Source of the DNA: Methanosphaera stadtmanae DSM 3091
Lineage (GTDB): Archaea; Methanobacteriota; Methanobacteria; Methanobacteriales; Methanobacteriaceae
DNA length: 32,000 nucleotides
Assembly: GCF_000012545.1 (NCBI RefSeq)
Contig: NC_007681.1
Span: 480,001 to 512,000 of the forward strand
Direction of reading: 5' to 3'
This document shows, one piece after another, positions 1,730-14,223 of the stretch (within the stretch, counting starts at the first letter, position 1; every line of letters starts with the position of its first letter). A program made the translations under genes and the position numbers. A model generated the notes under the pieces. The model made no database searches and was not told where the DNA came from. It saw only the letters and a program-made list of their open reading frames with translations.

Positions 1730-2437
1730 ATGAGACTAATAATTAAATTCAATCCATTATCTGATTGTAAATACGATGCAATTGGTAAATATGATATACA
1801 AGGTTTTATATATTCATTGTTAAAAGATACTGAATTTAAAAACTATCATGATATAAAAGGCTTTAAATTCTTTACATTTTCCAATATATTTCCAGTATGT
1901 GACTTTAAACAAGATAATTTAAAAACAATAATTATATCATCTCCAAGTAGTGCGTTTATTAAAGTACTATATTATCAATTATCAAACTTAGAAATATTTA
2001 GATTAAATAAATATTATATGGAAAAATATAAAGTTAAACTTATCAAGAATAATAAATGTTCTAATTCAATAATCACTGGAACACCTATTGTATTGTTTGA
2101 AAATAATTATGAAAATAGATATTATTCTTTTAATCAAAAATTAGATTTTAATTTTTTCTTTAATAGACTTAAAGAAAACGCTTTAAAAAAATACACTGCA
2201 TATACACAAGATGAAATAAACTTAGAATCAGATCTTTTTGATTCTTTTGAATTTAATCGAGAGGTATCTATGCGAATAATTATGAAAAACCAAACTTTTA
2301 TTATAATAGGTAGCTTATGGAAAGTTTTAGAAAAAAATATTGCTCGAGAAGATAGAAAATTTTATAATTTTTTATTTGATTGTGGTTTAGGCGAAAAAAA
2401 TAGTTTAGGAATGGGTTTCATTAATAATAGGAGGTGA
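1730..2437 (+). CDS. cas6: CRISPR-associated endoribonuclease Cas6
   Basis: 235 aa, first gene of the cas operon, with a strong SD. It has the C-terminal glycine-rich loop GLGEKNSLGMGF typical of Cas6. Confidence 0.9.
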   Translation: MRLIIKFNPLSDCKYDAIGKYDIQGFIYSLLKDTEFKNYHDIKGFKFFTFSNIFPVCDFKQDNLKTIIISSPSSAFIKVLYYQLSNLEIFRLNKYYMEKYKVKLIKNNKCSNSIITGTPIVLFENNYENRYYSFNQKLDFNFFFNRLKENALKKYTAYTQDEINLESDLFDSFEFNREVSMRIIMKNQTFIIIGSLWKVLEKNIAREDRKFYNFLFDCGLGEKNSLGMGFINNRR

Positions 2438-2444
2438 AAACGAT

Positions 2445-4262
2445 ATGTTAAATGGTATGTATGAATTAGGTAAATTCTGGATTCATGAAGAAAATATGGA
2501 AAAGATAGAAATTGTCTTGGATGCTAATAAACTCAATAATACTAAAAAAGTATTATTTGTTGATACAATAATTGATGGCAATAATATTAATTACCTTAAA
2601 ATTACAGAAGAAGAGTTTACTCTTCAAAAAAACATTAATTACATGTATAAAAAAGGATCTTCAAATGGTACAAATCTTTCACCATCCTCATTAATCACAG
2701 AACCAGAAAAAACATTTAATAAAAAATTTTTCAAATGGTTTAAGGATAATGCTAAAAAAGATGAATTTATTAACAATATCTTTCTCATGTTAGATGAAAA
2801 TAAAGAGAAAATCATGGAAGAAATAATTAATGTCTATGATAAAATAGACTCTGAAAATAATCGTAATGTTTTATTAACTATTAGATTTTCATTAAATGAA
2901 AATTTCAAGTATTTAAATGATTATGAAATTTTTAAAGAAATTCTATTAAATAAAGCTAATGAGAAATATTATAAATTAGGTTCTAAAAAAAGTAAAGGCA
3001 CATCGAAATGTTACCTTTGTGATAAAACTACAGAAGTATATGGTTTAGTTCCAAGTTCAATTGGTTTAACCTTTGCAACTGGAGATAAATCAGGTAATGT
3101 ACCAGATTTCAGCGTTTCAAATCAATGGAAACAATCTAGTATATGTCCTAGTTGTGCATTATATTTAGAGGCTGGAAAAAAATTTGTTGAAAAATATCTT
3201 AGCTTTTCTGAGTATGGTTTACGTTATTATGTAATTCCCATGGTATTTTTTAACAAAGAAAAAGTTTTAGAAGAAATATATGATGATTTATTAGATATTG
3301 AGGAACATAGAAAATATTCAGATGTTGTTAGTAAGGAAGAAGAATTTGCAGAAATAATTGAAAACTTAAATGATATTTTGGAGTTTAAGTTTTTATATTA
3401 TGAAGCAAGTAATAATTCATTTAATATCTCAGGATATGTAGAAAGTGTTCTTCCATCCTGGTTACATAAGATTTACAAAGAACAACACAATACACAAAAC
3501 TTACCAATATTTAATGAAGAACATATGAATTTAATATTTGGTGATAAAAATGTTGGAAATTTTATAACTAGAATTACTAATCAAAATAAAAAATATTCAT
3601 TAAATCAATATAACTGGTATTTAGGCTTATTAAGAGATTTCTTCTCATTTAAAAATAATAATAAATATTATATAGAGCTAGTAAATTCAATCATGAATCA
3701 AACACCAATTGATTATGAATTCCTATTAAAACAAATCATGAATGAAATTAGAAGTAATTGGCGTGATTATGATAATAAGGGAGGAATTATGCGATTTAAT
3801 GTATTTAAAGCTTTACATTTAATCATATTCTTAGATTCCTTGAACTTATTTAATGGAGGTAAAAAAATGCCTTTTGAAAATATGAATGAAACTGAAATAT
3901 TAAATATGTTAGAAAGTCCTGATAAGAAAGCATGTTTCTTATTAGGTGTATTGACAAAAAAAGTTACACAAATTCAATATTCAAAATTAGAGTCAACACC
4001 ATTTATTAATAAATTATGGGGTTTGAATATTGATAAAGATAAATTAAAACAAATATATACAATGGCTATTAATAAATTAACAGAATATAATCCTAGCAAT
4101 AACTATTTTTATAAAGAAATAGAAGAGGAAATTACACTTAATTTAATAAAAGCAGAAAATAATTGGAAATTAAAAAAAGATGAAGTAAGTTATTACTTTG
4201 TGTTAGGCTTTACAATTGGAGATACATTTGAATTAAAAGATGAGGCTGATAAAAATGAATAG
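2445..4262 (+). CDS. cas8b: type I-B Cascade large subunit Cas8b (TM1802/Csh1-like)
   Basis: 605 aa, positioned between cas6 and cas7. It has two cysteine pairs (CYLCDK ... CPSCALY) as in the TM1802-family large subunits. SD GGAGGTG lies upstream. Confidence 0.8.
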   Translation: MLNGMYELGKFWIHEENMEKIEIVLDANKLNNTKKVLFVDTIIDGNNINYLKITEEEFTLQKNINYMYKKGSSNGTNLSPSSLITEPEKTFNKKFFKWFKDNAKKDEFINNIFLMLDENKEKIMEEIINVYDKIDSENNRNVLLTIRFSLNENFKYLNDYEIFKEILLNKANEKYYKLGSKKSKGTSKCYLCDKTTEVYGLVPSSIGLTFATGDKSGNVPDFSVSNQWKQSSICPSCALYLEAGKKFVEKYLSFSEYGLRYYVIPMVFFNKEKVLEEIYDDLLDIEEHRKYSDVVSKEEEFAEIIENLNDILEFKFLYYEASNNSFNISGYVESVLPSWLHKIYKEQHNTQNLPIFNEEHMNLIFGDKNVGNFITRITNQNKKYSLNQYNWYLGLLRDFFSFKNNNKYYIELVNSIMNQTPIDYEFLLKQIMNEIRSNWRDYDNKGGIMRFNVFKALHLIIFLDSLNLFNGGKKMPFENMNETEILNMLESPDKKACFLLGVLTKKVTQIQYSKLESTPFINKLWGLNIDKDKLKQIYTMAINKLTEYNPSNNYFYKEIEEEITLNLIKAENNWKLKKDEVSYYFVLGFTIGDTFELKDEADKNE

Positions 4263-5214
4263 ATCAGAATTATTATTTTTATATGATATAAGTGATGCAA
4301 ATCCTAATGGAGATCCATTGGATGAAAATAAACCACGTATAGATGAAGAAACTGAAATTAACATAGTTACTGATGTTCGTTTAAAAAGAACAATAAGAGA
4401 TTACTTAGAAGAATTTGCAAATGAAGAACTATTTGTAAAAGAAAAAGCTGGAAAAGAGGGTGGACTTCAGGATGCTAAAACAAGAGCAGAAGATTATTTA
4501 CCTGAAGGAAATTACGAGTCATTTGATGAAGCTAAAAATGCTTTAAAAAATAATATTTTAGAAAAATGTATTGATGCACGTTTGTTTGGAGGTACAATTC
4601 CTCTTGAACTTAAATTAAAGAAAAAACAAACAGGATCCATTACTCTTACAGGTCCGGTTCAGTTTAGAATGGGTCGCTCACTACACAAAGTAGATATGCA
4701 ATATATAAAAGGAACTGGTGCTTTTGCTTCTAAAGATGGTAAAAGTCAAAAAACCTTCCGTGAAGAATACATATTGCCTTATTCTCTTATAGCATTCTAT
4801 GGAGTAATAAATGAAAATGCTGCAAAATCAACTAATTTGAGAGAAGATGATATTAATAAATTATTGGATGGAATATGGAATGGTACTAAAAACTTAATTA
4901 CAAGATCTAAATTTGGTCAAACTCCAAGATTATTGTTACAAATAGAATATTCTGAAAATAACTTCTTTATAGGTGATTTAAACAATAAAATATCAATAAA
5001 ACATGACTTTGAAAATGATAAAGAAATTAGAAATATTAATGAAATTAACTTAGTATACAGTCAATTACTTAATAGTTTATCTAAAAACACAGAAAAAATA
5101 AATAAAATCTATTATAAAGTGGATGATAACTTAAATTCAATTAATGAAGAAAGTAATTCTATTATTGAAGCTATAAACTCTTTAGGAATTGATACTGAAG
5201 AAATTCAATTATAG
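4255..5214 (+). CDS. cas7: type I-B Cascade backbone subunit Cas7 (Csh2-like)
   Basis: The N-terminus NRSELLFLYDISDANPNGDPLDENKPRID carries the Cas7 I-B/I-C signature (anPNGDP). The tracked ORF starts at 4240. The ATG at 4255 is preferred because GAGG lies about 10 nt upstream and it gives the typical ATGAATAG overlap with the cas8b stop. Confidence 0.9.
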   Translation: MNRSELLFLYDISDANPNGDPLDENKPRIDEETEINIVTDVRLKRTIRDYLEEFANEELFVKEKAGKEGGLQDAKTRAEDYLPEGNYESFDEAKNALKNNILEKCIDARLFGGTIPLELKLKKKQTGSITLTGPVQFRMGRSLHKVDMQYIKGTGAFASKDGKSQKTFREEYILPYSLIAFYGVINENAAKSTNLREDDINKLLDGIWNGTKNLITRSKFGQTPRLLLQIEYSENNFFIGDLNNKISIKHDFENDKEIRNINEINLVYSQLLNSLSKNTEKINKIYYKVDDNLNSINEESNSIIEAINSLGIDTEEIQL

Positions 5215-5225
5215 AAGGTGTTATT

Positions 5226-5933
5226 ATGAATCTAATAGTGTTTGACATTTGGGGGGATTATGCCTATTTCAGAAGAGGATATACAACAACTTCAACATTA
5301 ACATATCCATTTCCTAGTCGAACGACTATCGCAGGTTTTATTGCTGGTATACTTGGTTATCCAAGAAATTCCTATTATGATTTATTTCAGAAAGAAAATA
5401 GTAAAATAGGTTTAAAAATCATTAATCCTATTAAAAAAACCAGAATTAATTTAAATTATATTAATACTAAAAATAGCATGCTTTTATCTGAAATAAAAGG
5501 TAATGGAAAAAGAACACAAGTCCCAGCAGAATTTCTTAAAAATGTAAAATATAGAATATATCTATCTTTAGATGATGAAGAAATAATGAATAAATTATAT
5601 AATACATTAAAAGAACATAAAAGTGTTTATACACCTTATTTAGGTATAACTGAATGTTTAGCTAATTTTAGTCTTGTTGGTAAAGGTATATATTCGACTG
5701 AAAGTATTAAAGGTAATAATGTTGATATTAATTCTGTTGTATTAAAAGAAAGTGGTAATATTAAAATAGAACCTAAAAAACGTTATGGTGTTATAAAATC
5801 ACCAGGTTTTATGGAGGATGATCGTAGTGTTACTTCATTTTTAGAGTATTATTATGAATCAATGGGCAATACTATTAAACTTGAATCCTGTGAATATTAT
5901 AAAGTTGGAGAAGACAATGTTATCTTATACTGA
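5226..5933 (+). CDS. cas5: Cascade subunit Cas5 (I-B)
   Basis: 235 aa. The N-terminus FDIWGDYAYFRRGYTTTSTLTYPFPSRTTIAGFIAGILG is the classic Cas5 motif. Confidence 0.9.
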   Translation: MNLIVFDIWGDYAYFRRGYTTTSTLTYPFPSRTTIAGFIAGILGYPRNSYYDLFQKENSKIGLKIINPIKKTRINLNYINTKNSMLLSEIKGNGKRTQVPAEFLKNVKYRIYLSLDDEEIMNKLYNTLKEHKSVYTPYLGITECLANFSLVGKGIYSTESIKGNNVDINSVVLKESGNIKIEPKKRYGVIKSPGFMEDDRSVTSFLEYYYESMGNTIKLESCEYYKVGEDNVILY

Positions 5934-8304
5934 TAAAATTAATGAACTTTATTCACACCCTCAAAAGCCTTTAACAGAACATTTGTTAAATGTAGCAGAA
6001 AATTCAAGAAGTATCTTTGAAAATCTTAACATAGAAAATAATTCTTTCTATGCCTCCCTTTCTTTTTTAATTGGATTATGTCATGATTTTGCTAAATGCA
6101 CCAGTTTTTTTCAAAAACATCTATTTGGAATAGAAAATAGTGAAAAGGCATATCATAGCTTTTTATCTGCAATTTTTGGGTATTATGTGATAAAAAAGTA
6201 CATAAAAGAAAATGAAATTAAAGAAGAACTAAATTATCCTATCATAGGTTACATTTGTATAATCAATCATCATGGAAATTTAAAAGATGTTTATAATACA
6301 GAAAAATCAGAATTTAATAAAATAAATCAAATTCCACAATATCTTGATGAACAAATTAAGGATATTAAATCAAGAAACATATCTAGTCTTAAAGAATTTT
6401 ATTTAAAATACAACATTTCCATCGATGATTTTTTAGAAGAATATGAAGAAATTAAATCAGTTATTAAAAAAGATTTAAAAATAATATATCGAGAAAAAAG
6501 AATTGATAATTACTTCAATGTATTAATACTATTTTCAGTATTATTAGATAGTGATAAGTTAGATGCTTCTTACACTGAGACATATCCTAGACAAGAACTT
6601 AATGCTAATTTAGTTGACTTATATAAACAAGAAAAATTTGGTCAATATGAAGGTATTAATGAAATTCGAGAAGAAGCTTATCAAGAATTAACAAGTTCTC
6701 TTGAAAATATTGATTTAAACAATAAAATCTATTCAATTACGTTACCTACTGGTTCTGGTAAAACAATGAGTGCATTTTCTTTTGCATTAAAATTACGAAG
6801 AAAAATAAAAAACGAAAAAAATATTATACCTCGAATAATATATACCATGCCTTTTTTAAGTATTGTTGATCAAAATGAAGAAGTATTAAGAAAAATATTA
6901 AATTATTCCAATTATGATACTTCTGATATTTTAATTAAACATAATTCCACATCTGAATTATCTTATGTGGTAAATAAAAATGGAACTACGAAAATACAAG
7001 ATGATCCTACTGAAAAAGCTGAATTAGATGTAGATAAAGCTGAAATGCTACTTGAAGGATGGTATTCAGAAATAGTTATAACTACGTTTTATCAATTAGC
7101 ATATACTCTCATATCAAATAAAAATAAAGCATTAAGAAAATTTCATAATATAAGTAATTCTATCATAATAGTAGATGAAGCACAATCTATTCCAGCAAAA
7201 TATAATCAAATATTCAAAACAGCATTAGATTATTTGTCTAAAAAATTTAATGTATGGATTATATTCATGACTGCTACTCAACCAGAAATTTTCAAAGAAA
7301 GTGATGGAATATTACCTTTAATTACTAATGAACAGAAATACTTTGACTGTTTTGATAGAGTTAACTATGTATTTCATCATACACCAATGACAATTGATGA
7401 TTTTAAAGAAAAAATAGTTGATATAATTCAAGAAAATAATAAAGATATTATGATAGTATTAAATACTATATCATCATCAACAGAGATATTTGAGTATATA
7501 CAAGGGTATTTTGATGAAGAAGGTATAGAATTATACTATTTATCTGGAAATATAATTCCAAAAGAGAAACTAGAACGAATTAAAAAAATTAAAGAATCTA
7601 ATAATAGAAAAGTCATCGTTACAACACAATTAATTGAAGCAGGAGTAAATATTGATGTAGATATAATCTACAGAGATTTTGCTGTGATGGATAGTATTAT
7701 TCAAACTGCAGGTAGATGTAATAGGAATGATAAAAAAGAAAAAGGAACAGTAAATATAATACATTTAATTAATGAAAATAAAAGAGAATATAGTAGTTTT
7801 ATTTATGACTCAACACTTCTTAGGCTTACTGAAGAATTAACAAAAGATTATACAGAAATTTCAGAAAAAGATTTCAATTTAAAAATATCAAAAAAATATT
7901 ATACAGAAGTAAATAATCGTATAAGTCATGATGCATCACATAATTTAGAAAAAATAATATCAACACTTAAAATATCAAATATAACACATGAATTTAAATT
8001 AATTGAAGATGATATTGAAAAAATAGATGTTTTTATTGAAATAAATGATGAAGCAACTGAAATATGGGATAAATATAATGAAATATATTCAGATAAAAAT
8101 TTAAAAAATTATGAAAAAAAATTAAAACTTAAAAAAATAAATAGACAATTTAACAATTATGTTCTTTCTATACCCACAAATCTCATAGGAACAGTTAATT
8201 ATGATAAATTCATATTTCATGTAGGAAAAAATGATATTGAACGAAAATATAATCTAAATACGGGTTTTATAGCACAAGAAAACGAAAATGCATATATGAT
8301 ATAA
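5917..8304 (+). CDS. cas3: Cas3 helicase-nuclease (N-terminal HD domain fused to SF2 helicase)
   Basis: HD motifs (LCHDFAKC, INHHGNL, LLDSDKLDAS). Helicase motifs LPTGSGKT, VDEAQ, MTAT, TQLIEAGVNIDVD, QTAGRCNR. The tracked ORF starts at 5854. The ATG at 5917 is preferred (GGAG at 5907-5910) and overlaps the cas5 end. Confidence 0.92.
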   Translation: MLSYTDKINELYSHPQKPLTEHLLNVAENSRSIFENLNIENNSFYASLSFLIGLCHDFAKCTSFFQKHLFGIENSEKAYHSFLSAIFGYYVIKKYIKENEIKEELNYPIIGYICIINHHGNLKDVYNTEKSEFNKINQIPQYLDEQIKDIKSRNISSLKEFYLKYNISIDDFLEEYEEIKSVIKKDLKIIYREKRIDNYFNVLILFSVLLDSDKLDASYTETYPRQELNANLVDLYKQEKFGQYEGINEIREEAYQELTSSLENIDLNNKIYSITLPTGSGKTMSAFSFALKLRRKIKNEKNIIPRIIYTMPFLSIVDQNEEVLRKILNYSNYDTSDILIKHNSTSELSYVVNKNGTTKIQDDPTEKAELDVDKAEMLLEGWYSEIVITTFYQLAYTLISNKNKALRKFHNISNSIIIVDEAQSIPAKYNQIFKTALDYLSKKFNVWIIFMTATQPEIFKESDGILPLITNEQKYFDCFDRVNYVFHHTPMTIDDFKEKIVDIIQENNKDIMIVLNTISSSTEIFEYIQGYFDEEGIELYYLSGNIIPKEKLERIKKIKESNNRKVIVTTQLIEAGVNIDVDIIYRDFAVMDSIIQTAGRCNRNDKKEKGTVNIIHLINENKREYSSFIYDSTLLRLTEELTKDYTEISEKDFNLKISKKYYTEVNNRISHDASHNLEKIISTLKISNITHEFKLIEDDIEKIDVFIEINDEATEIWDKYNEIYSDKNLKNYEKKLKLKKINRQFNNYVLSIPTNLIGTVNYDKFIFHVGKNDIERKYNLNTGFIAQENENAYMI

Positions 8305-8313
8305 AGGATAAAT

Positions 8314-8814
8314 ATGATGAAAGATTCACAGATAACTGGAGTAATGATTCAGTATTATAAAATATGTAAAAGAGAACTATGGTTTTATATGAATCAAATA
8401 AATATGAACTATGATAATAATGATATTGAAATTGGAAGATTAATACATGAAAATAGTTACAAAAGAGAAAAAAAGGAAATTCGTGTAGATAACTTAGTAT
8501 TTGATTTTATACAAACAAAAGATAAGCTAACAGTATTTGAAGTAAAAAAATCAAGTAAAATTACAATCGGGGCATTATATCAATTATACTACTATTTATA
8601 CACATTAAAAAACGCAGATATAGAAGCAAAAGGAATGTTAGTATTTCCAAAAGAAAAGAAAAGAGAATCCATAGAACTAACAGAAGATATAATTAAAGAA
8701 ATTGATGATATAATTAAAGAAATTAAGAAAATATCAAATGAAACAAAACCACCTCATGAAAAACAAAAACCCTACTGTCAAGGATGTTCTTTCAGAGAAC
8801 TTTGCTTAATATAG
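8314..8814 (+). CDS. cas4: Cas4 RecB-like exonuclease
   Basis: 166 aa with an N-terminal Cys (YYKICKRELW) plus a C-terminal CQGCSFRELC cluster (4Fe-4S ligands). Located between cas3 and cas1. Confidence 0.88.
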   Translation: MMKDSQITGVMIQYYKICKRELWFYMNQINMNYDNNDIEIGRLIHENSYKREKKEIRVDNLVFDFIQTKDKLTVFEVKKSSKITIGALYQLYYYLYTLKNADIEAKGMLVFPKEKKRESIELTEDIIKEIDDIIKEIKKISNETKPPHEKQKPYCQGCSFRELCLI

Positions 8815-9800
8815 GTTGTGATACTATTAAAGAACCATTATATATTAACTCAAATGGGATATTATACCGAAAAGAGAATACACTTAAATTTAAAAATAAA
8901 GAAGTTGACACAAGTATACCAATTCACGCAATCAATGAAATAAATTGTTATGGAAAAGTTTCATTGCGATCAGGAGCAATATCATTACTACAAAAAGAAA
9001 AAATAATAATAAATTTCTTTAATAAATATGGATATTATGAAGGATCATTATACCCAAAAATAGCACTAAATTCAGGAGTAATAGTAGTGAAACAAGCATT
9101 AACATACAATAATGAAAATAAACGATGTTTTATAGCTAAGGAAATGGTAAATGGAATGAAACATAACATGATAAAAACATTAAAATATTATAAGAAAAAA
9201 GGAAAAGATGTTGATGAACACATTCAAAACCTTGAAAATGAATCAATTTTAGATGGAAATATCAATAGAATACTCTCATCCGAAGGAAAATTATGGCAAT
9301 CATACTACCCCTCATTTGATAACATCACAAAAAAATTTCCAATAGAAAAAAGAGAATTCAAACCACCAAAAAATGAAATGAACTCCTTAATATCCTATGG
9401 AAATTCATTATTATATACTACAACACTATCCGAAATCTATCATACCTACCTTCATCCATCAATAAGTTTCCTGCATGAACCTCGTGAAAGAAGATTTTCA
9501 CTTGCATGTGATCTAGCAGACATATTCAAACCATTAATAATAAGTAGAACTATATTCAAATTGGTAAATACTAATATAATTAATGAAAAACACTTTAAAA
9601 AAGATGTGGGAGTATATCTCAATGAAAAAGGAAGACAAAAATTCATACAAGAATACAATAATAAACTTAAAACAACAATAAAACATCCACAAATTAAGAA
9701 AAAAGTCTCATATAGATACTTAATAAGATTAGAAGGATATAAATTAATCAAACATATACTTGAAGATAAAACATACGAAAGCTTCAAGACGTGGTGGTAG
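8784..9800 (+). CDS. cas1: Cas1 integrase
   Basis: 338 aa with conserved Cas1 segments SEGKLWQSYY, NSLISYGNSLLY and HEPRERRFSLACDLADIFKP. The start is uncertain: the ATG at 8784 overlaps cas4 by 31 nt. Confidence 0.92.
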   Translation: MFFQRTLLNIGCDTIKEPLYINSNGILYRKENTLKFKNKEVDTSIPIHAINEINCYGKVSLRSGAISLLQKEKIIINFFNKYGYYEGSLYPKIALNSGVIVVKQALTYNNENKRCFIAKEMVNGMKHNMIKTLKYYKKKGKDVDEHIQNLENESILDGNINRILSSEGKLWQSYYPSFDNITKKFPIEKREFKPPKNEMNSLISYGNSLLYTTTLSEIYHTYLHPSISFLHEPRERRFSLACDLADIFKPLIISRTIFKLVNTNIINEKHFKKDVGVYLNEKGRQKFIQEYNNKLKTTIKHPQIKKKVSYRYLIRLEGYKLIKHILEDKTYESFKTWW

Positions 9801-10063
9801 GAATATACATATTAGTAATATATGATATTAAAATAGAACGAATAAATAAAGTATACAAATTTCTTAAAACATATTTAATATGGATTCAAAATTCAGTATT
9901 TGAAGGAGAAATAACAAAAGCACAATATAAAACAATGATTATAAAACTAAAAGAATTAACAGACGAAGATGAAGATTCAATAATTATATATAAGATACCT
10001 AAGAAATATTTAAATAAGGAAGTACTTGGAATAGAAAAAAATCCAATAGAATTTATACTCTAG
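9791..10063 (+). CDS. cas2: Cas2
   Basis: 90 aa with a GTG start overlapping the cas1 stop. ILVIYDI ... IQNSVFEGE is the typical Cas2 ferredoxin-fold signature. Confidence 0.9.
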   Translation: MVVGIYILVIYDIKIERINKVYKFLKTYLIWIQNSVFEGEITKAQYKTMIIKLKELTDEDEDSIIIYKIPKKYLNKEVLGIEKNPIEFIL

Positions 10064-10168
10064 GTCCACTCCCCTATAATTTTTACAACATTAGGGGTGG
10101 ACTATAAACAACTACTTTTTTAAACAATCACAACAGTTTAAAGAGTAAAATACGAAAAATTTTTTGGC
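10064..10168 (+). promoter_or_regulatory. CRISPR leader
   Basis: AT-rich 105 bp between the cas2 stop and the first repeat. It contains an imperfect inverted repeat (TAGGTCCACTCCCCTA 10061-10076 / TAGGGGTGGACTA 10092-10104) and a degenerate repeat-like stretch GTTTAAAGAGTAAAATACGAAAAA (10136-10159). Confidence 0.75.
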
Positions 10169-13100
10169 GTTTAAAATAGACTTAATAGTATGAAAACCGG
10201 ATTTGATTAAAACGTATTACCCAATCATATATTTCGTTTAAAATAGACTTAATAGTATGAAAACTAGATATTTCAAATTTACAATTACCATTTAAAAAAA
10301 CGTTTAAAATAGACTTAATAGTATGAAAACAAGAACGTTTTGCTTCTAATTCAGAGTATAATACTTTTGTTTAAAATAGACTTAATAGTATGAAAACCCA
10401 ATGAGGAAGAATATCTCGGTCTAGAAAAAGGAGGTTTAAAATAGACTTAATAGTATGAAAACAAGGAAATTATAATTATACTCACCAGTATGATATTAAG
10501 TTTAAAATAGACTTAATAGTATGAAAACCAATAGAGGAATAAAAACAATGTCAAGTATAATAAAAGTTTAAAATAGACTTAATAGTATGAAAACTTGAGG
10601 TAGAAATTGATAATGAGTTCATTAATGAACGTTTAAAATAGACTTAATAGTATGAAAACTATATATGGAATAATATTGAAACAGTGTTTAAAATAAGTTT
10701 AAAATAGACTTAATAGTATGAAAACAACAAATAATATGTGTCATTATACTTATAGATTTTACGTTTAAAATAGACTTAATAGTATGAAAACCTGGATAAT
10801 CAATCCCTTTAAAACTAGCCGGACTAAGTTTAAAATAGACTTAATAGTATGAAAACTTCGTAGAGGTGGTGAGTCCAACAATTTTATTTTTTCGTTTAAA
10901 ATAGACTTAATAGTATGAAAACCATCTTCCCATTCATAGTCTTGTTTAAATTCTCCATTGTTTAAAATAGACTTAATAGTATGAAAACTGATAACATTCA
11001 AAAAGATATGTGGAAAACAATCAATGTTTAAAATAGACTTAATAGTATGAAAACCACTTGAAATAAAACACATAGTACAATTTCAACTGTGTTTAAAATA
11101 GACTTAATAGTATGAAAACAGGTCATCAATATCATATTCTTTTACAAGTGTATTTCGTTTAAAATAGACTTAATAGTATGAAAACTTATGAAAACAAGTG
11201 ATGGAACAAATAAAACAATAATGTTTAAAATAGACTTAATAGTATGAAAACGATGCTTTTAAATTAATATATTTTAATATTAATTCAGTTTAAAATAGAC
11301 TTAATAGTATGAAAACATAGTGAATATACAGACCCCCTTAAAAAGCCAACAATAGTTTAAAATAGACTTAATAGTATGAAAACTGAAAATTGATTATAAA
11401 AAAGTAGGAGATGTATTTGAAGTTTAAAATAGACTTAATAGTATGAAAACTATGGAATCACGTAAAAGAGCAACGTTGGGTTATCAGTTTAAAATAGACT
11501 TAATAGTATGAAAACTAACAAAACTACTCAAAACAAAAATAACAGAAACAGAGTTTAAAATAGACTTAATAGTATGAAAACAAAATGGAGATAAAACAGA
11601 TTATAAAATGGAACTTATAGTTTAAAATAGACTTAATAGTATGAAAACCTTAGATGCAGTAGAAATGAAAATCTGTTATACTAAGTTTAAAATAGACTTA
11701 ATAGTATGAAAACCATCTTCTGTATTTGGTGGAGTAATATATTTTTCACGTTTAAAATAGACTTAATAGTATGAAAACAACTCTTTTTCACTATTTATTC
11801 CTATTTTCAAATAAGTTTAAAATAGACTTAATAGTATGAAAACGGTTTATTAATTCATCTTCAATATGTTTCATGTAATCGTTTAAAATAGACTTAATAG
11901 TATGAAAACTACCAATAAAATAGTCTTGATTTGTACTTTTAAGCTGGAGTTTAAAATAGACTTAATAGTATGAAAACAAATTATTGCTACAACAAAAGAT
12001 ACAATTACAATTACAGTTTAAAATAGACTTAATAGTATGAAAACTTTCATTATTTTGTTGTTCTTTGTTGTTGTAGTGTAGTTTAAAATAGACTTAATAG
12101 TATGAAAACAATGGATTTTGAGCATCATTATCAGGAGTAATACTTGGGTTTAAAATAGACTTAATAGTATGAAAACCAAATACTATAGATTACATAATAC
12201 TTTTAACAGAAAATGTTTAAAATAGACTTAATAGTATGAAAACTTTGTTTGAGGTGGAATTACTTGTGTATACATTGTATTGTTTAAAATAGACTTAATA
12301 GTATGAAAACTTATTTAAATGAAAGTGATATACCTAATACAACTCCGTTTAAAATAGACTTAATAGTATGAAAACGTAATGATTTCTACAGTGAAATTGA
12401 AGAATTTATAGGTTTAAAATAGACTTAATAGTATGAAAACTAATAGTGGACGTTTATATGTAAAGAATATTAAATTAGTTTAAAATAGACTTAATAGTAT
12501 GAAAACCTAGACGAGGATAAAACAATTCCAAGTGATACATGGGTTTAAAATAGACTTAATAGTATGAAAACTAATGTTGCAAGACAAATAAAAGAAGTAA
12601 TTAAGAACGTTTAAAATAGACTTAATAGTATGAAAACTGATTATATTACTGAATCAGAAGCTTTTGACTACATAGTTTAAAATAGACTTAATAGTATGAA
12701 AACTACTTCCTCTACTGCAACAATTCTATAAAAAAAATCGTTTAAAATAGACTTAATAGTATGAAAACTTTAATCTTCTAAAACATAAATAATCATACAA
12801 AAAGGTTTAAAATAGACTTAATAGTATGAAAACGCAAATGGTGTTGATACAAATAATATTCGGGAAATGTGTTTAAAATAGACTTAATAGTATGAAAACC
12901 ACCTATATGTACTAGAATTTACGCCCATTTCATAGGGTTTAAAATAGACTTAATAGTATGAAAACGCAAATGGTGTTGATACAAATAATATTCGGGAAAT
13001 GTGTTTAAAATAGACTTAATAGTATGAAAACCACCTATATGTACTAGAATTTACGCCCATTTCATAGGGTTTAAAATAGACTTAATAGTATGAAAACCCA

Positions 13101-14223
13101 AACTGGGTAGAAGCAAATACTACTGCAAACAATGTTTAAAATAGACTTAATAGTATGAAAACCATGAAAAATACATCACAAAAAATAAAACAAGTTACCG
13201 TTTAAAATAGACTTAATAGTATGAAAACTCTATTCTGTATATATTCAATTTAGGATAGAATTTCGTTTAAAATAGACTTAATAGTATGAAAACTAGTTTA
13301 GTGCCCTTAGTATTTAAAGGTTTGTTCATAGTTTAAAATAGACTTAATAGTATGAAAACGAATACAACACTTTAAATACTAGAAATGACAAATAAGTTTA
13401 AAATAGACTTAATAGTATGAAAACATCTATATTGGGAAAAAAGAAGGCACTTCTTTTAGAGTTTAAAATAGACTTAATAGTATGAAAACTTTTTATTACT
13501 TGCTGCTAAATCCCATACACGACAATAGTTTAAAATAGACTTAATAGTATGAAAACTGGATATAATATGACTGAAATAGGTCGTAATAGTAAAGCTGGTT
13601 TAAAATAGACTTAATAGTATGAAAACCGGAGATATGTGCCAATTAATTCATCACCTACCTCTTCATGTTTAAAATAGACTTAATAGTATGAAAACCAAAA
13701 TTGGATGTGGACTATAAACAGCTACTTTTTTAAACGTTTAAAATAGACTTAATAGTATGAAAACACAAATAAAACACTAACAGAGTATAGTATTGATAAT
13801 GTTTAAAATAGACTTAATAATATGAAAACTTGAACACCATGAAAAGAAATGCCCGTGTTTTTATTTTTGTTTAAAATAGACTTAATAGTATGAAAACCAC
13901 TCTCACAATCCTTATGATGAATGTATCTACTTCGTTTAAAATAGACTTAATAGTATGAAAACGTCTTATCATCAGAATTTTCATCAACAACATCTATTTG
14001 TTTAAAATAGACTTAATAGTATGAAAACCTTATGAAGGAGAAAAAGAAGTCGAATATAAAAGACACGTTTAAAATAGACTTAATAGTATGAAAACCACTT
14101 GTAACTGTACCACCACCAGTATAACATAATACGTTTAAAATAGACTTAATAGTATGAAAACCTTGAGTCAGGAAACTTTGAAATACATCATTATAGAGTT
14201 TAAAATAGACTTAATTGTAAAAC
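10169..14223 (+). CRISPR. CRISPR array: 62 repeats, 61 spacers
   Basis: The 29-nt repeat GTTTAAAATAGACTTAATAGTATGAAAAC was counted 61 times by hand, with a period of about 65-70 bp, plus a truncated terminal copy GTTTAAAATAGACTTAATTGTAAAAC (14198-14223). Spacers are 36-41 nt. One internal variant repeat occurs at 13801-13829 (G->A at 13820). The + orientation is inferred from the cas-proximal leader, the distal repeat decay and the ATGAAAAC 3' end (8-nt handle-like). Confidence 0.98.

Follow-up and report, generated by a model that had tools for sequence, protein, structure and literature searches.

Some archaea are known to have spacers directed against other CRISPR-cas systems (Brodt et al. 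2011, PMC3285040). There, a host spacer shared homology with a stretch of a CRISPR-cas locus, which was read as immunity to incoming CRISPR-bearing DNA. Spacer 54 of the Methanosphaera stadtmanae array described here is alike in this respect, but the earlier matches were to cas genes of other systems, whereas spacer 54 matches a non-coding leader and also fits the resident leader with an intact PAM. The self-spacer hotspots of Pyrococcus furiosus (Shiimori et al. 2017, PMC5737086) share with spacer 54 a PAM-flanked plus-strand protospacer just upstream of the first repeat; however, the P. furiosus self-spacers were fresh, exact and unfixed (0 of 200 resident spacers), whereas spacer 54 is old, shared among strains and 5 nt off. 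It was also reported that the viruses SPV1 and SPV2 carry cas-less mini-arrays with host-like leaders (PMC6858448), and that Fuxivirus carries a type IV-B module with a mini-array (PMC10848311). Elements of this kind would bring in a homologous leader while lacking homologous cas genes, and the main target of the array is a type IV-B virus family; but the sampled Methanosphaera virus showed neither array nor leader, and these elements are named here as a candidate donor class only. Finally, crRNA-like regulators (CreR/CreA and the crlRNA mini-arrays) resemble spacer 54 in that they are partly complementary to a PAM-flanked site within their own CRISPR locus. In contrast to CreR/CreA, spacer 54 lies in the main array between perfect repeats and not in a mini-array that stands alone and has degenerate repeats, carries its mismatches on the seed side (positions 4, 8, 10 and 11, with the PAM present) and not distally, and is dispensable across strains.

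The window, i.e. the whole 32,000-nt stretch of DNA that was analysed, comes from a complete genome of 1,767,403 bp, whose Cas2 has its closest named homologues in Methanosphaera, and contains a type I-B CRISPR-cas locus with the following features (window coordinates):

1730..10063, plus strand: complete type I-B operon cas6-cas8b-cas7-cas5-cas3-cas4-cas1-cas2, every frame open
10064..10168, plus strand: 105-nt leader, immediately 3' of the cas2 stop
10064..10102, no strand assigned: leader inverted repeat GTCCAC-N27-GTGGAC, seen in the fold and kept in 12 leaders
10083..10085, plus strand: 5'-TTA PAM, immediately 5' of the matched leader segment
10086..10125, plus strand: leader segment paired with spacer 54 at 35/40, consisting of the right inverted-repeat arm and the T-tract downstream
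10126..10168, plus strand: 43-nt repeat-proximal part of the leader without counterpart in spacer 54, ending in a conserved CGAAAAATTTTTTGGC-type motif
10169..14223, plus strand: type I-B CRISPR array with 62 repeats (the last one degenerate) and 61 spacers of 36–41 nt
13696..13735, plus strand: leader-like spacer of 40 nt, number 54 of 61

For comparison, 11 homologues of the leader were collected from genomes of other Methanosphaera and of relatives, giving a set of 12 with the own leader included. In all 12, the right arm of the inverted repeat ended 65–67 nt before repeat 1 (66 nt in the own leader), whereas the same arm in the context of spacer 54 lies 23 nt from the next repeat. From this constant spacing it follows that the 43 repeat-proximal nucleotides are ancestral. 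They had been regarded in a preliminary description of this DNA as extra sequence including a decayed repeat-like stretch, but they are part of the conserved leader, and the 'decayed repeat' at 10136–10159, which lies inside that conserved part, was rejected as a relic. The conserved end of the 43-nt part resembles, by eye, the repeat-adjacent T2 motif required for integration in P. furiosus (PMC13748974).

Several other arrangements were observed in this and related loci. On the minus strand at 1477–1575, upstream of cas6, there is a repeat-like mini-array that is CreR-like, and within the array spacers 41–42 are tandemly duplicated as 43–44 (12834–13068). An M. cuniculi-like split I-B locus (L088:5350-16291, and L089) was found beside an integrase element, with the leader-array upstream of cas4-cas1-cas2 and a convergent interference operon. 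In L117:14188-14690 a deletion extends from cas3 to the array, with cas6-cas8b-cas7-cas5 retained, and 7 similar places were seen. In L146 (G029:C11) two oppositely oriented arrays are joined through a broken repeat, i.e. an array inversion.

By direct comparison, 35 of the 40 nucleotides of spacer 54 were identical to leader positions 10086–10125, and the mismatches were at spacer positions 4, 8, 10, 11 and 26. Three of the five fall in the TAGGGG arm of the leader inverted repeat (10092–10097), and four lie within the first 11 nt (p ∼0.02–0.03). The final 29 nt matched at 28/29, the spacer was flanked on both sides by perfect 29-nt repeats, and the leader homology ended at both repeat boundaries. 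The 35/40 match, the 28/29 stretch and the limits at the repeat boundaries had been seen in the preliminary description; the number of the unit, given there as 55, is corrected to 54. The second-best site for spacer 54 in the 1.77-Mb genome had 12–13 mismatches, and the remaining 59 spacers tested had 9–13 mismatches at best. As a control for chance, spacer 54 was shuffled 20,000 times against the leader, for which the best result was 14 mismatches, and 40 times against the genome, for which it was 12–15. The match between spacer 54 and the leader is real and not due to chance.

For the PAM, cas2 was followed into gut metagenome contigs, which yielded 578 distinct M. stadtmanae spacers and the provirus that they target. 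When protospacers were defined as matches of a spacer to the provirus within 3 mismatches (n = 190 of 578), 5'-TTA preceded 165 of the 190, compared with a background of 3.6%. Two consecutive spacers of another strain (L079) also matched the source genome perfectly, at G000:C1:813258 and 814223, both with TTA; the stretch near 813–814 kb of the source genome is probably mobile. The TTA triplet at the leader site, earlier noted as identical to a putative PAM-like flank elsewhere, with the suggestion that the PAM be determined from other spacers, is thus borne out by a PAM measured on 190 viral protospacers. It was read on the homologous own leader and not on the true donor. Spacers of 40–41 nt made up 15 of the 578, and some of them had 0–2 viral mismatches together with TTA, which puts the 40-nt length of spacer 54 within the range of normal acquisitions. 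The repeats on both sides of spacer 54 are intact, the array adjoins a complete I-B operon, and in the features tested, apart from an exact foreign protospacer, which was not found, it is an ordinary, PAM-selected type I-B spacer. Of the two readings first proposed, that of a true spacer acquired from leader DNA of a CRISPR locus was therefore supported by the TTA frequency, by the length and by the unit-like inheritance given below.

The provirus itself showed some features of its own. In several gut strains (loci L085, L094-L104, L109-L113, L119, L121 and L127) a head-tail provirus of ∼62 kb, with integrase, MCM, terminase and portal genes, has inserted itself into cas8b, in the 5' part of the gene. 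The 7-bp core GTTGATA corresponds to window positions 2559–2565, and the gene is split into 56–67 aa and 571 aa, which looks like CRISPR inactivation by integration. The provirus encodes a type IV-B module (csf1, cas11, csf2, csf3 and a cysH-like gene) in which no array was found, and it is targeted by about one third of the spacers (190/578). A related type IV-B Csf2 with 71% identity was found in another Methanosphaera species (G002:C31:175527-176405, L151), with no Cas2 match of such a type.

Spacer 54 was present in 7 other strain arrays, identical in 6 of them and with 1 SNP in the seventh, and was missing from 5 arrays of the same trailer lineage and from a second lineage. Exact repeat-spacer-repeat contigs were also found in two animal metagenomes (runs X2 and X10). 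Deletions were frequent among these arrays; neighbours on either side of spacer 54 were deleted in some of them, and its retention among same-lineage arrays (7) was within the range of its neighbours (4–9). Spacer 54 is inherited and deleted as a normal repeat-spacer unit. Arrays with spacer 54 later gained up to ∼127 further spacers, so that it does not block adaptation. The 105-nt leader was identical in 27 other contigs, some of which may be from the same strain, including the lineage without spacer 54 that shares no trailer spacers. The cas operons were 0.1–0.6% apart among strains, and the shared trailer spacers showed 5 differences in 3,117 bases.

The donor had been left as own, paralogous or foreign in the preliminary description. 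The paralogous option fell away, because the complete genome has no other such leader; its second array has a different repeat and gave no match. For the others, the single bases are informative. Position 10 of spacer 54 has the base of 9 of the 11 outgroup leaders, and position 8 has that of the two outgroup leaders with the closest Cas2 (78–79%), whereas positions 11 and 26 carry bases of its own that are derived and unlike all leaders compared. Outgroup-type bases at 8 and 10 together with derived bases at 11 and 26 imply changes on both branches, and such a pattern points to a sister leader that is closer (35/40) than the leader of any other species (20–28/40). Since the leader is invariant, the cas operons are 0.1–0.6% apart and the trailer spacers barely mutate, five neutral changes in 40 nt would not be expected. 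We therefore favour a foreign sister leader as the donor, with some reserve.

Among the Cas2 and Cas4 records, none had an identity between ∼80% and 98%. A complete sister cassette would thus be unsampled. No match to resident cas genes was found among the 578 M. stadtmanae spacers either, and these two results favour a donor that had a leader but no matching cas genes.

The better (40/40) leader match that had been suggested earlier for the genome, its relatives or viruses was not found in IMG/VR, the JGI metagenomes, GTDB, 215 family genomes or ∼50 of the 62 kb of the main target virus, collections in which mobile DNA of Methanosphaera is scarce or near relatives are missing. In IMG/VR, neither the leader core nor the repeat, the inverted-repeat pattern or the spacer-specific bases gave more than chance coding matches, if any, and no relative of the cas8b-integrating virus was found there. 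The JGI metagenomes contained just one own leader and one copy of spacer 54, in an array; GTDB scans, in which near relatives may have been left out, gave zero or three chance matches. At 3 mismatches, 61 relatives and the 215 family genomes contained no donor, the only leader being one of 28/40 in G016. BLAST against phages and plasmids gave noise, and in the part of the cas8b-integrating virus that was covered (∼50 of 62 kb), as in a related G002 provirus, the best site had 15–17 mismatches and no array was seen. A foreign leader ∼80% alike in two metagenome runs was not counted, because its gaps fit the known L067 type, and a viral motif near L099:18420 was rejected with at least 15 mismatches and a different palindrome. 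Nor was a leader-matching spacer seen among 478 spacers of related systems, or another leader or cas match among the 578 spacers of M. stadtmanae. The leader match of spacer 54 looks like a one-off, with no second case in ∼1,050 spacers. In the degenerate-repeat search, two IMG/VR viruses (L129:5034-5060 and L130:3830-3856) were found to carry a solitary copy of the repeat family of the array, without leader or array; a unit of the RNA anti-CRISPR type is possible.

With a foreign sister leader as donor, incoming DNA carrying a sister copy of the leader (∼87% identical) would have entered the cell. Cas1-Cas2-Cas4 would have cut spacer 54 beside a TTA PAM and inserted it at the array's leader end, and subsequent acquisitions would have pushed the unit to position 54. 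The most plausible source would be a mobile element that carries a host-like leader but hardly any cas genes or none, or else a sister CRISPR cassette that has not been sampled. Once made, the crRNA of spacer 54 would also see the leader of the cell itself, with the correct PAM. In the type I-B system of Haloferax volcanii, a single mismatch at positions 1–5 or 7–10 abolishes interference (PMC3737343). Against the own leader, spacer 54 has three mismatches (4, 8 and 10) in the expected seed, with the cas frames open and the PAM intact, and Cascade should consequently not license Cas3. By this seed rule, taken from another organism, spacer 54 is probably harmless to its own chromosome; it would have been tolerated and then inherited or deleted like its neighbours. 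The mismatches at 4 and 8, earlier suggested to protect the chromosome, are indeed present, and position 10 in the seed adds to them, but the protection itself is a prediction carried over from H. volcanii.

Alternatively, spacer 54 might have been taken from an older version of the cell's own leader, which then changed and so escaped, possibly by one template-switch in which the left hairpin arm served to rewrite the right one (positions 8, 10 and 11), with positions 4 and 26 substituted separately. The geometry is that of P. furiosus, where CRISPR loci are hotspots of newly acquired self-spacers, which come from the plus strand upstream of the first spacer (PMC5737086), and two papers describe template switching as homogenising inverted-repeat arms (PMC3820800, PMC8604942). 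Positions 8, 10 and 11 all fall in a 6-nt arm, the right one, whose pairing with the left arm is perfect in the present leader, and the skew of the mismatches toward the first 11 nt is in line with escape. Lysogens with a provirus-split cas8b exist and might tolerate self-spacers. However, two more substitutions would be needed in 40 nt (5%), compared with cas operons at most 0.6% apart, and the leader is identical in the lineage without spacer 54. Deletion of a self-targeting spacer is moreover a commoner way of escape than a leader change, and deletions are frequent in these arrays. Self-acquisition followed by leader escape is rather unlikely on balance.

A further option is that a normal array spacer was domesticated as a regulatory guide, such that crRNA 54 parks Cascade on the own leader without cleavage and damps or tunes array transcription or acquisition. 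The correct PAM and the 28/29 distal match would allow this, 7 of 12 same-lineage arrays have retained spacer 54 although flanking neighbours were deleted, and the locus appears to have a CreR-like unit already. But this retention does not stand out from that of the neighbours, the spacer is dispensable, arrays that have it kept growing, and the 478 spacers of related systems contain no counterpart. Its mismatches are PAM-proximal, the reverse of the pattern of known crRNA-like repressors. We regard a regulatory role as very unlikely.

The other initial reading was that spacer 54 is a relic of an old leader and the distal 8 repeats (13736–14223) belong to an older array to which a newer one was joined. 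One more feature bears on it:

13490..13868, plus strand: spacers 51, 52, 53, 55 and 56 (and also 61), matching one caudovirus family and flanking spacer 54 on both sides

The mismatches to this family were 0, 5, 10, 6, 3 and 3 for spacers 51, 52, 53, 55, 56 and 61, with TTA for 51–53. The leader-like sequence does adjoin a repeat directly, and the sole variant internal repeat of the source array does lie distally (13801), but in one strain a variant repeat is also found on the upstream side of spacer 54. Likewise, the three longest spacers (41, 40 and 40 nt) do cluster at 13557–13735 (permutation p ∼0.005), and two of them match viruses with TTA. In five other strains, however, the cluster is interrupted by a spacer of 36 nt, which argues against a junction; the clustering may reflect a period of altered prespacer trimming. 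In the strain comparison that had been proposed, spacers 49–53 were co-inherited with 54–61 and no junction appeared between blocks around spacer 54, contrary to a separate older array. A fusion relic is hardly credible, as it requires two exact deletions, one ending precisely at the PAM, that jointly leave a spacer-sized piece, and as the 43 nt are ancestral with the arm at 65–67 nt in all 12 leaders against 23 nt at spacer 54, no strain array has a longer leader remnant in this slot, and the spacers before and after it are directed at one virus family.

These results provide a measured PAM, 5'-TTA, for the type I-B system of M. stadtmanae, and a clean, PAM-validated case of a CRISPR array remembering CRISPR leader DNA. 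As a single old spacer whose donor was not found in the collections searched, it leaves the general picture unchanged. The case predicts one of two things: a Methanosphaera mobile element that has a host-like leader and still awaits discovery, which would amount to CRISPR against CRISPR in the archaeome of the gut, or an instance on record of a leader that escaped its own array.
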